Shown here one piece after another: positions 24,013 to 53,053 of a stretch of DNA of 64,000 bases. The stretch spans positions 50,625 to 114,624 of the forward strand of contig JAEUKI010000001.1 in the NCBI GenBank assembly GCA_016793325.1, in the 5' to 3' direction. The stretch comes from Myxococcales bacterium (GTDB taxonomy: Bacteria; Myxococcota_A; Polyangia; Polyangiales; Ga0077539). The notes beneath the pieces are model-generated. The model did no database searches. It was not told the origin of the DNA and saw nothing but the letters and a program-made list of their open reading frames with translations. Position 1 is the stretch's first letter, and each line of letters starts with the position of its first letter. Made by a program: the position numbers and the translations under genes.

Positions 24013-24128
24013 GAAGGGGGAAAGTCTGCAACGCCTGGGCCAAGTGGGGAGGAGGGACAAGGGGGCCGTGAGTGCGGGGGGACGCCAGCAACGAGTGCAT
24101 CGGGAAGCAGCGGGCGCATGCGACGGGC

Positions 24129-24671
24129 GCATGCAACGAGTGCATGCGCATGGGCGCCGCGCACGGCGGGGCGTCTGCGGTCGAAGCGACCGGACGCCGC
24201 AGAGAATTGCGCATCCGAGCGAGGCGGCCTCACCCCCGCTGCCGCGCGCCCCTCTCCCGCGCGGGCGCGCGGGAGAGGGGCTACTGGGACCGAAGCGTCG
24301 TGGCAGAAAACCAACGGCTGTCTACGATGCACACAAAATCAAAGCCCCTCTCCCGCGATCTCGCGGGAGAGGGGCGCGCGGCAGCGGGGGTGAGGCAAAC
24401 CACCGCGCAAAACGCGTGCTCGGATCGACGTGCCTTCCACGTGGGTTGGGCTGTGACGCTCGATCGCACGACACGCTGGAATGCTCCCCACAGAACTCGC
24501 GAAGCGGTGCGGCACTTTTCGGCGCCTATGGGATCGCGCACTGAGCGCGTTGATTCATCAGTGAATTCACTGGAAGAGACGCGCTTCGCGCGTGACTCCT
24601 CGGCGTCCGGGCGCCTTGGCCCGTGACGCCCCGCCGCGCACGGCGCCCATGCGCATGCACTCGTTGCATGC
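24129..24671. repeat. ~543-bp element bounded by 47-bp inverted repeats with nested internal palindromes
   Basis: 24129-24175 'gcatgcaacgagtgcatgcgcatgggcgccgcgcacggcggggcgtc' is the reverse complement of 24625-24671 with ~4 mismatches. Inside, 24228-24261 pairs with 24362-24395 (34 nt). Two local hairpins share the arm gcccctctcccgcg (24248-24281 and 24344-24375). Confidence 0.8.
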
Positions 24672-24720
24672 GCTCGCTGCCTGCGCTCTGCTCTCCATGC
24701 GCTCTCTGCATGCGCTCGGC

Positions 24721-25158
24721 TCAATTGGCGCTCGTTGCCGGCGCGCACTCGGCGCAGCAGCGACGGAGCGCGCGGATGTTGATGACGTGCGCGACGACGA
24801 GCAGCGACGCTCCGACGATGGACAGCGCGAGCTCGGTGCGCTCGGAGGAGAACTCGATCGCGCGGCTCGCGACGAGCACCGCGGCGCCGGCGCCGAGCGC
24901 GAGGTACACCCGGCGATCGTTGTGCAGCGCGACGCCGCGTCGAAGCGCGATCGTCGCGAGCACGATCGACACCGCGACGAACAGCCGCTCGACCCACTCG
25001 CTCTCAATCACGCGCAACGCGGGAACGGCCGCCGCGACCGCAGCCCCCGCCGCGCAGTGGATCGCGCACAAGACGGACGCGGTCATTCCCACGCGATCGA
25101 GCCGCTCGTCGGAGGCGCGCTCCAAGAGCGACGGTGCGGGGGGAGGGCTCGTGCTCAC
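24721..25158 (-). CDS. MerC-domain membrane protein
   Basis: The GTG at 25158 lies 5 nt after the sigma gene stop. The N-terminus ...LDRVGMTASVLCAIHCAAGAAVAAAVPAL matches the 'LD..G...S..CA.HC' start of MerC-domain proteins. About 4 hydrophobic helices. C-terminal CCAEC. Confidence 0.7.
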   Translation of the reverse strand: MSTSPPPAPSLLERASDERLDRVGMTASVLCAIHCAAGAAVAAAVPALRVIESEWVERLFVAVSIVLATIALRRGVALHNDRRVYLALGAGAAVLVASRAIEFSSERTELALSIVGASLLVVAHVINIRALRRCCAECAPATSAN

Positions 25159-25163
25159 GATGC

Positions 25164-25808
25164 TCAGGCCTTCTGTCGATGGTGTGACGAGTCGGTGTGG
25201 GTTGGCGACGATGACGCCCGGAGCGCCGCGATCCCGTGGGACGCGCAGCAGCCGCGCTCGTCGCAGCCGCACGCGCTGCACTGGGCGGCGCTCGACGTTC
25301 CACAGTGGGCGATCATGCGCTCGCGAAGGGCGCTGCGGGCGCGGGACAATCGCACGGTCGCGTTGTTGACGGTGATCGACAGGGAGCCCGCGGCTTCGTC
25401 GAGCGTCTCGCCTTCGACGTCGATGCGACGAAGGATCTCTGCGTACGACGCAGGGAGCGCTTCGAGCTGCGCGAGCGAGCAGCGACAGCGGTCTTCTTCG
25501 TGCTCGCGCGAAGGCGCCGCGGCGCTCTCGGTGTCCGCGTCCGCATCGATCCACTGCTCGCGACGCGAGAGGGACTTTCGATACAGATCGAGGGCCGTGC
25601 GCGCGACGGCGAAGAGCCACGCGCGAGCTCGCGTCGGGTCACGGAGCGTCGACGACTTCTCCCACGCGCGCTCGAGCGTCGCGGCGAACACCTCGTCGGC
25701 CGCGGCGTCGTTGGGCGTTCGACGACGCACATAGCCCCAAATCGACGAGCGATGCTCGGCGAGCATCGCCTCCCACGCGGCGCGATTGGGTGTCGAGTCG
25801 TCGTTCAT
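25164..25808 (-). CDS. ECF sigma-70 factor with a Cys-rich C-terminal extension (CorE-like)
   Basis: Sigma-2 region (EVFAATLERAWEK...ARAWLFAVARTALDLYRK) and sigma-4 region (LPASYAEILRRIDVEGETLDEAAGSLSITVNNATVRLSRARSALR). A CRC motif sits in the linker. The tail HCGTSSAAQCSACGCDERGCC has 6 Cys. No anti-sigma gene is adjacent. Confidence 0.85.
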   Translation of the reverse strand: MNDDSTPNRAAWEAMLAEHRSSIWGYVRRRTPNDAAADEVFAATLERAWEKSSTLRDPTRARAWLFAVARTALDLYRKSLSRREQWIDADADTESAAAPSREHEEDRCRCSLAQLEALPASYAEILRRIDVEGETLDEAAGSLSITVNNATVRLSRARSALRERMIAHCGTSSAAQCSACGCDERGCCASHGIAALRASSSPTHTDSSHHRQKA

Positions 25809-25824
25809 CGGGGCCGTGTGCCTC

Positions 25825-25989
25825 TCAGGTACGGCGGGCGCGGGCGGCGTCGCATCCGCACGAGGCGGGGCATCCGCAGTCGGGTGGGCACTTGCACGTC
25901 GGGCCGCAGCAGCACTCGCCCTCGGGGCGCGGTTGGTTGCACTTGCAGGTTCCGGTGTTGCAGCAGGGGCAGGCGTTCTTCTCGGTCAT
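25825..25989 (-). CDS. Metallothionein-like Cys-rich small protein (54 aa, 14 Cys)
   Basis: Hand translation: MTEKNACPCCNTGTCKCNQPRPEGECCCGPTCKCPPDCGCPASCGCDAARARRT*. ATG at 25989-25987, TGA at 25827-25825. A purine-rich 'gaaagagag' lies 6-14 nt upstream. GC3 is about 89%, as in real genes here. The stop is 16 nt before the sigma ATG. It is not in the ORF track because it is under 60 aa. Confidence 0.7.
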   Translation of the reverse strand: MTEKNACPCCNTGTCKCNQPRPEGECCCGPTCKCPPDCGCPASCGCDAARARRT

Positions 25990-26415
25990 GATGGGTCTCT
26001 CTTTCGATGAGTTGGTTGGGGTTCGCCGAGGTAGACACCCGAGGAGGCGGGATTCTTACACGGGGCGAAGGTGAAAAACGTCGAGCGCGAAAGTGTCTGC
26101 GAAATGGCAGGCGAGAGTGCAGCACCGCAGCAAGCGAGCGGAGCGCGGCGGCAAGCGGGCTACGGCGCGGCAGCAAGCACTCATCATTCGTTACCTGCGT
26201 CGAAGCATACGGCCCGAGAAACACATGGCTAGAGGGCAAGCCTGAGGCTCGACCTCTGGCCGTGTGACTCGGCCATCGATGAGGCCACTCGCCCCCTGCG
26301 CATGTGCGTGCCCCGCGACGACGACTGCCTGCGCCTGCGCTCGCAACATGATTGTGTGGTCTCCGTCCGCCGCCTTGCGTTCGTGTGTCGCGGCTCGTTA
26401 CGATCCCGTCACTCC

Positions 26416-52870: not shown

Positions 52871-53053
52871 TCAGCGAGCCACACCGCGGGTGGTGGTGCG
52901 CGCATGCAACGAGTGCATATCGAGCACCGCGCGGCGCTCGCTGCCCCTTGGCTCCCGGCGACGCGCAATACGTGTTTCGTTAGCAAATTTGCAGGGCGCG
53001 TTCATCGATCGCCGACGCTCGTCCGGGGCACGCTGGCGACGCGCGAACCGCAG

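Follow-up and report, generated by a model that had tools for sequence, protein, structure and literature searches.

The window analysed here, a stretch of 64,000 nucleotides with 68% G+C from an uncultured Myxococcales bacterium (assembly GCA_016793325.1, contig JAEUKI010000001.1, positions 50,625 to 114,624), carries on its minus strand three closely spaced genes encoding a cysteine-rich peptide, a CorE-like extracytoplasmic function (ECF) sigma factor and a MerC-domain membrane protein (Table 1). The peptide gene, a small open reading frame (sORF), is separated from the sigma gene by 16 nt (25809-25824), and the GTG start of the MerC-domain gene follows the sigma stop after 5 nt (25159-25163). 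A previous sequence-only reading of this DNA had proposed the three genes as a self-contained, autoregulated metal-homeostasis operon. The reading frames, their spacing, the two cysteine motifs it singled out in the membrane protein (CAIHC, C31-A-I-H-C35, and CCAEC, C134-C135-A-E-C138) and the promoter strings gtaagaat (26059-26052) and gtctac (26036-26031) all lie where it had placed them. These short gaps, together with overlapping genes in relatives, suggest that the three genes would be carried on one transcript. Comparison with related loci moves the main interest from the three-gene combination to the pairing of peptide and sigma, as the conserved unit is the sORF, the sigma gene and the candidate promoter that precedes them.

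Table 1. Features of the operon and its downstream flank, in window coordinates.
Feature	Position	Strand	Remarks
Candidate -35 element, TGTAAG, ECF-type	26055..26060	-	Conserved block upstream of the sORF
Candidate -10 element, GGTGTCTAC, GTC core	26031..26039	-	17-18 nt past TGTAAG
sORF, Cys-rich metallothionein-like peptide	25825..25989	-	54 aa
CorE-like ECF sigma gene	25164..25808	-	214 aa
MerC-domain membrane protein gene	24721..25158	-	145 aa
Terminator-like GC-rich hairpin with T-rich tail	24334..24375	-	~350 nt 3' of the MerC-domain stop; weak candidate operon end

The sORF product (MTEKNACPCCNTGTCKCNQPRPEGECCCGPTCKCPPDCGCPASCGCDAARARRT) has 14 cysteines among its 54 residues (26%), arranged in one CCC and five CxC motifs, and contains no histidine, phenylalanine, tryptophan or tyrosine; its core reads GECCCGPxCxCPPxCxCPxSCGC. 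The frame is kept in the seven loci of the window's clade, in which synonymous sites are near saturation (proportion of synonymous differences, pS, 0.39-0.57), and the proportion of nonsynonymous differences in the six closest loci is 0.07-0.19 (pN; pN/pS 0.16-0.43). Clade values centre on a pS of about 0.4-0.55 and a pN of about 0.07-0.14, with pN/pS at 0.16-0.36. Twelve cysteine columns vary little or not at all across the peptide family, whose members range from 50 to 63 residues, and the non-cysteine residues G24, E25, G29, P30, G45, P36 and P41 are conserved as strongly as the cysteines. Residues invariant across twelve members are M1, C17, G24, E25, C26-C28, G29, P30, C32, C34, C38, C40, C44, G45 and C46. 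Given the low pN/pS and the conserved cysteine positions the sORF is, as judged from its substitution pattern, a real gene under purifying selection.

Small, cysteine-rich in CxC and CC pairs and poor in aromatic and histidine residues, the peptide is a metallothionein by operational definition only, with predicted metal-thiolate clusters. Neither Pfam, its family Metallothio_Pro (SmtA/BmtA type) included, nor NCBIfam gives a match to the window peptide at E<=1, and a PDB sequence search returns no chain at E<=10. The earlier assignment therefore stands in one part, as the peptide is conserved and metallothionein-like by composition, but it falls within no curated metallothionein family. A ribosomally synthesised and post-translationally modified peptide (RiPP) precursor was considered as another identity for the sORF product and rejected, as no conserved modifying enzymes lie nearby and the flanks vary. 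Automated gene callers often overlook the sORF (gene calls of loci L003, L004, L016, L018 and L019), and in the database proteins P0002 and P0011 the sORF region, translated in a different frame, has been joined to the sigma as a spurious N-terminal extension; the peptide family is therefore under-represented in protein databases.

The close sigma family is rare, with some 11 clusters among 5.8 billion proteins, and occurs in only three GTDB species genomes, all of them uncultured Polyangiales/Myxococcales metagenome-assembled genomes (MAGs). The sORF lies directly 5' of the sigma gene at every locus of this family, usually unannotated. The peptide family is equally scarce: a profile search of 1.84 billion representative proteins gave only seven clusters (50% identity), on whose contigs an ECF sigma gene begins 2 nt past the sORF or overlaps it by 4 nt. 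A metagenome scan with the peptide alignment yielded 23 further loci, in which downstream sigma genes were sought by local hidden Markov model (HMM) searches. The family as a whole numbers about 30 distinct variants, in environmental loci. Wherever at least 300 nt of downstream DNA is present a sigma gene lies within -8 to +81 nt of the peptide, in most loci at 2-18 nt, in all but two cases (L034 and L035). All sORF-linked sigmas whose linker and C-terminus are on the contig have a linker CxC and the C-terminal pattern C-G-T-x-S-x3-C-x2-C-x-C, the distant ones at 35-43% identity to the window sigma, and subtypes of the peptide N-terminus match subtypes of the sigma Cys-rich domain. One of the two exceptions, L035 (339-500; 531-1073), encodes a peptide homolog without a sigma, beside a convergent 180-aa gene whose product carries a C-terminal CxxCH and resembles cytochrome c', and still has a TGTAA-N-GTC motif upstream of the peptide. 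In the other, L034 (3-413), a peptide homolog runs on, within one 136-codon reading frame, into what appears to be a short and degenerate remainder of the sigma ending in CQDCGC, similar to the Cys-rich domain; this reflects either decay of the locus or an error of assembly. Genes flanking the module vary from genome to genome, which indicates that the module is a discrete unit and agrees with the proposal of a self-contained operon.

The sigma factor has the two domains Sigma70_r2 (PF04542, residues 17-78, E=1.4e-7) and Sigma70_r4_2 (PF08281, residues 113-161, E=3.3e-8), with no Pfam sigma3 or sigma1 domain, which is the architecture of group 4. Its best NCBIfam match is SigZ (TIGR02959, 73 bits, under the cutoff of 168.65), which belongs to ECF238 (PMC7826278), and a PDB search returns generic ECF sigmas only (SigL, SigH, SigE). 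The linker between sigma2 and sigma4 holds a CxC motif, C108-R-C110, invariant in 10 close homologs. A Cys-rich domain (residues 168-191, HCGTSSAAQCSACGCDERGCCASH) lies about 46 residues from the C-terminus with the form H168-C169-GTSSAAQ-C177-SA-C180-G-C182-DERG-C187-C188-AS-H191, in which the six cysteines and two flanking histidines are invariant in ten sigma homologs of 58-97% identity. CorE-like (ECF44) sigmas are defined by a strictly conserved linker CxC together with a Cys-rich domain of 21-50 residues at the C-terminus (PMC4937300, PMC6851896), and published work finds both essential if CorE is to be active in response to Cu, and CorE2 in response to Cd/Zn. The window protein has this architecture, the CxC and the Cys-rich domain, confirming what had been proposed of it, and by analogy would be activated by metal. 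Pfam searches found neither an anti-sigma nor a zf-HC2 domain in the operon, in which it is the Cys-rich peptide that precedes the sigma.

DNA upstream of the sORF is unalignable among the seven clade loci save for two blocks, TGTAA(G/T) and GGTGTCT(A/C/T)C, which in the wider family take the form TGTAAG-N17/18-(C)CGTCAGCA, at constant spacing and 5' of the sORF. With few exceptions this promoter-like motif is present at each distinct locus for which sufficient upstream sequence is available, and in the window its -10 element lies about 42 nt 5' of the sORF ATG. A -10 element with a GTC or CGTC core at such a spacing is typical of ECF promoters. The pattern TGTAA-N16-20-GTGTCT has one site in the 64-kb window (26033-26060, minus strand) against 0.01 expected, and occurs once in each of 14 sigma-bearing loci, always just 5' of the sORF; it was not found in five MerC-only loci. 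The promoter candidate, called weak when it was originally noted, is therefore strongly supported by its conservation, and no other non-coding feature of the locus has as much behind it. Such a conserved promoter 5' of the sORF indicates that the sORF, the sigma gene and, in this clade, the MerC-domain gene probably form a single autoregulated unit, in which the promoter would be recognised by the operon's own sigma. A wider regulon within the window was considered and rejected, as relaxed promoter patterns gave no second site in the 64 kb.

The product of the third gene matches the Pfam MerC family over its entire length (PF03203, E=4e-21, profile positions 1-108 of 108), and the AlphaFold2 model (13 sequences, mean predicted local distance difference test score, pLDDT, 85) shows four long helices, so the identification as a MerC-domain membrane protein holds. 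Homologs down to 29% identity keep D21, R22, G24, C31, A32, H34, C35, P46, G75, H79, G91, G116, H124, N127 and R129 invariant, with the cysteine pair C31/C35 conserved in helix 1 as C-A-x-H-C. The window protein ends in RRCCAEC and the clade members P0030-P0035 in RRCC, while more distant homologs carry other C-terminal tails. On our own reading of the hydropathy and the positive-inside rule, the candidate Cys/His ligands would lie at the cytoplasmic face. No NCBIfam family is matched, a PDB search with the MerC-domain profile gives no match, and Foldseek against the PDB returns only generic four-helix bundles, none at E<=0.001. Full-length PF03203, the four predicted helices and the C-terminal cysteine cluster are common to this protein and the MerC of mer operons (Tn21-type Hg(II) uptake), and its helix-1 cysteine pair may correspond to the essential pair of that MerC. 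The helix-1 motif has a histidine and three residues between the cysteines where the classical MerC motif is CxxC, and the invariant His79 and His124 are additional. Nor are merR, merP, merT or merA present near the window operon or in the related loci, and with no mer context a bona fide mercury-resistance MerC was rejected.

The MerC-domain gene is found 3' of the sigma gene only in a narrow clade (the window, L003, L004, L016 and L019). It overlaps the sigma stop by 4 bp in the four relatives, against the 5-nt gap of the window, and is predicted to be translationally coupled to the sigma in all five clade members. The closest outgroups lack it, L001 having in its place an unrelated 181/192-aa gene and L014 Ser/Thr kinases. 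L018 shares its sigma (P0005) with L019 and the two are 99.7% identical until 66 nt into the MerC-domain gene, where they diverge at the start of an insertion in L018 that carries a Y2-transposase gene about 270 nt past the breakpoint (L018 4083 vs L019 5687); this population variant thus has an interrupted MerC-domain gene. None of the distant sORF-sigma loci has a MerC-domain gene. The next gene there is convergent or variable, and the neighbours include genes for a 1-Cys peroxiredoxin, DUF302 and thioredoxin proteins, a MopE-motif protein, a ParB-like protein and a sigma54 activator. Conversely, distant MerC-domain homologs adjoin cobW, DUF3299 or ribosomal protein Thx genes and have no sigma neighbour. 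The expectation that the three genes would be co-conserved as a trio thus fails, the MerC-domain gene being confined to the narrow clade. Among the distant homologs, those of Planctomycetota (P0037-P0039) have an extra Cys-rich loop (GCEAGCEQCCPSY...), and the P0037 gene (L006 4001-4462, L007 2436-2897) adjoins a convergent cobW-family GTPase gene, which hints that MerC-domain proteins outside mer operons may be tied to zinc or metal-chaperone systems.

The Myxococcus xanthus sigmas CorE and CorE2 (ECF44, since merged into ECF238) have in common with the window sigma the sigma2 and sigma4 domains, the linker CxC, whose cysteines carry the same numbers in CorE2 as in the window protein (Cys108/110), the six-cysteine C-terminal domain, a myxobacterial host and likewise no recognisable anti-sigma domain nearby. 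They are described as 'loner' sensors (PMC4937300, PMC6851896) that target P1B-ATPases, a multicopper oxidase and a CDF pump, and corE2 is not autoregulated. The window-type sigma, in contrast, always follows a Cys-rich sORF that has a conserved ECF-type promoter ahead of it, an arrangement that implies autoregulation, and its apparent output is a sequestering peptide rather than an efflux or oxidase system.

In function, the closest analogues of the window operon are SmtB/SmtA and RicR/MymT. The former is a sense-and-sequester loop of a cyanobacterial metallothionein and an adjacent ArsR-family sensor, while in the latter, from M. tuberculosis, a small Cys-rich metal-sequestering protein is under the control of a dedicated metal sensor. 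SmtB and RicR are repressors (ArsR/SmtB and CsoR families) released by metal, whereas here the putative regulator is an activating, co-transcribed ECF sigma, and no relationship of the peptide to SmtA/BmtA, or to any other curated metallothionein family, can be detected in its sequence. Engineered bioaccumulation strains that express MerC with a metallothionein join a thiol-lined importer to a cytoplasmic Cys-rich sink, and the logic of the operon would equal this design if the MerC-domain protein imports metal. Those strains are artificial, whereas the window combination is natural, sigma-controlled and limited to one small clade; strains with metallothionein and polyphosphate kinase are a related engineered example (PMC3180271).

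Our interpretation is of an autoregulated, self-contained operon that responds to thiophilic metal and is built on the conserved two-gene core, to which we assign a probability of about 0.55. By analogy with CorE and CorE2 the sigma would sense cytoplasmic metal directly via the linker CxC and the Cys-rich domain, and once active would bring RNA polymerase to the TGTAAG-N17/18-GTC promoter 5' of the sORF, giving a single transcript and from it three products. The peptide would bind metal in thiolate clusters and lower the free metal, and would thereby exert negative feedback on the sigma; the additional sigma made would provide positive feedback. In the window clade only, the MerC-domain protein may transport that metal or retain it at the membrane, and analogy with mer operons suggests this could be import with hand-off to the peptide, as MerC and MerT pass Hg to MerA. 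A His-free peptide rich in CxC and CCC, together with the MerC domain, points to a soft metal, Cu(I), Cd, Zn or Hg, as the inducer.

Several observations weigh against such a metal-responsive operon. When twelve members of the peptide family were compared with curated metallothionein families, the best match was to Metallothio_5, at E=0.17 and in 2 of the 12. The MerC-domain gene is dispensable in the close relatives L001, L014 and L018, and a metal importer induced by metal excess would be counter-intuitive unless it were coupled to sequestration. Of the M. xanthus genes, corE2 is not induced by metal and corE is autoregulated only in part, so that strong autoregulation here would be a departure from the characterised members. 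In addition, the same-strand genes that follow the sigma in distant loci are redox-related (a 1-Cys peroxiredoxin in L023; DUF302 and thioredoxin in L029), and fit thiol stress as well as they fit metals.

The pairing itself, near-absolute across deep divergence and tight, with gaps often of 2-18 nt or overlapping genes, could be accounted for in another way, namely that buffering is not the peptide's chief role and that it serves sigmas of this subfamily as an obligate regulatory partner, either a metal-dependent anti-sigma-like inhibitor or a metal donor or competitor acting by direct contact, so that loading of the peptide with metal would release or activate the sigma. Such linkage is typical of sigma/anti-sigma pairs and not of a regulator with one of several targets, and the literature likens the CxC and Cys-rich domain to zinc-binding anti-sigma (ZAS) domains. 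The peptide, however, has neither the ZAS HxxxCxxC motif nor a match to an anti-sigma domain, and its gene lies 5' of the sigma whereas anti-sigma genes are usually 3'. That peptide N-terminal subtypes track subtypes of the sigma Cys-rich domain would be expected of interacting partners, but is explained equally well by vertical co-inheritance, and CorE and CorE2 act without partner proteins and have no such peptide. We consider a partner role unlikely, and it is similarly doubtful that the peptide binds the sigma or exchanges metal with it, as a metal-gated anti-sigma or a metallochaperone.

The redox-related genes behind the sigma in L023 and L029, together with ArsR(HTH_5)-rhodanese genes near L003 and L023 and the ability of CorE itself to tell copper redox states apart, would suit a module that senses thiol-oxidative or reactive-sulfur/electrophile stress, with oxidation of the sigma cysteines as the switch and the peptide as a sacrificial thiol or redox buffer. 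This appears distinctly unlikely given that both characterised CorE-like sigmas are metal-activated, that 52 of 65 other ECF44 genes are in metal-related contexts according to the literature, that the accessory gene of the window clade encodes a metal-type membrane protein with a MerC domain, and that a protein with a MopE-type metal-binding motif adjoins the pair at another locus; the downstream redox genes, moreover, lie 180-300 nt from the sigma and in two loci only. The position of the sORF directly ahead of the sigma gene on what would be a shared transcript, and its usual neglect or misreading by gene callers (P0002, P0011), might also be expected of a Cys-codon-rich leader, or of a spurious high-GC reading frame, that affects sigma translation only and whose peptide has no function. 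We find this highly improbable and have rejected it, as selection on the non-cysteine residues, which are conserved as strongly as the cysteines, contradicts it. The pN/pS far below 1 where synonymous sites are near saturation, the constrained peptide length, the gaps of 2-18 nt that in most loci leave an attenuator no room, and the retention of the sORF without a sigma in L035 argue in the same direction.

Metallothioneins are uncommon in bacteria, with few known families, and the peptide would add a candidate family with an invariant GECCCGPxCxC core. CorE-like sigmas, of which two members have been characterised, are presented in the literature as the textbook example of ECF sigmas that sense alone through an on-board Cys-rich extension; a conserved and mostly unannotated Cys-rich peptide gene, with a conserved candidate promoter, before a whole branch of them is a candidate for either their primary output or a missing partner. 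Should the partner role prove true, a single module would reveal a class of partner new to ECF regulation and, with it, a new family of bacterial metallothionein-like peptides. A full-text literature search found no paper with ECCCGP or its variants, nor one combining 'bacterial metallothionein' with 'myxobacteria', and the searchable literature, which does not extend to the supplementary context tables of the CorE2 and ECF reclassification papers, links no CorE-like sigma to a metallothionein. The peptide-sigma pair with its promoter thus appears undescribed. It lies in an annotation blind spot, where the sORF is usually overlooked or read in the wrong frame as an extension of the sigma. The window clade in turn joins a putative sensor and sink to a thiol-lined membrane protein, a natural arrangement similar to those engineered for metal bioaccumulation.

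The genes around the operon in the window, encoding a Ser/Thr kinase, a PEGA/TPR protein, FG-GAP proteins and an unknown 306-aa protein, are none of them metal-related. Two long plus-strand reading frames opposite the operon (24592-25734 and 25236-25991) were rejected as ordinary high-GC artefacts facing real genes. Around related loci we note a chromate transporter gene (PF02417) at 3370-4719 of L014, the most divergent member of the window clade; it shares the strand of the sORF and ends about 110 nt 5' of it. ArsR(HTH_5)-rhodanese fusion genes lie near two unrelated loci, L003 (11589-12290) and L023, and thiol- or sulfur-related genes recur near sORF-sigma loci (L023 2934-3593 and 917-1567; L029 5049-6238).

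Downstream of the operon, the hairpin listed in Table 1 is the sole terminator-like site in the scanned region 24100-26400, a yield no higher than shuffled sequence gives, and sits within a nested inverted-repeat element. This element, at 24114-24686, lies in the 590 nt that separate the MerC-domain gene from the gene for the Ser/Thr kinase. Its 91-nt inverted arms (24114-24204 and 24596-24686, 84% complementary) enclose two near-identical GC-rich hairpins, GCCCCTCTCCCGCG...CGCGGGAGAGGGGC, at 24248-24281 and 24344-24377. The palindromic organisation resembles that of a miniature inverted-repeat transposable element (MITE) or a repetitive extragenic palindromic (REP) sequence, and the element has one other match in the window, of 19 nt at 52900.

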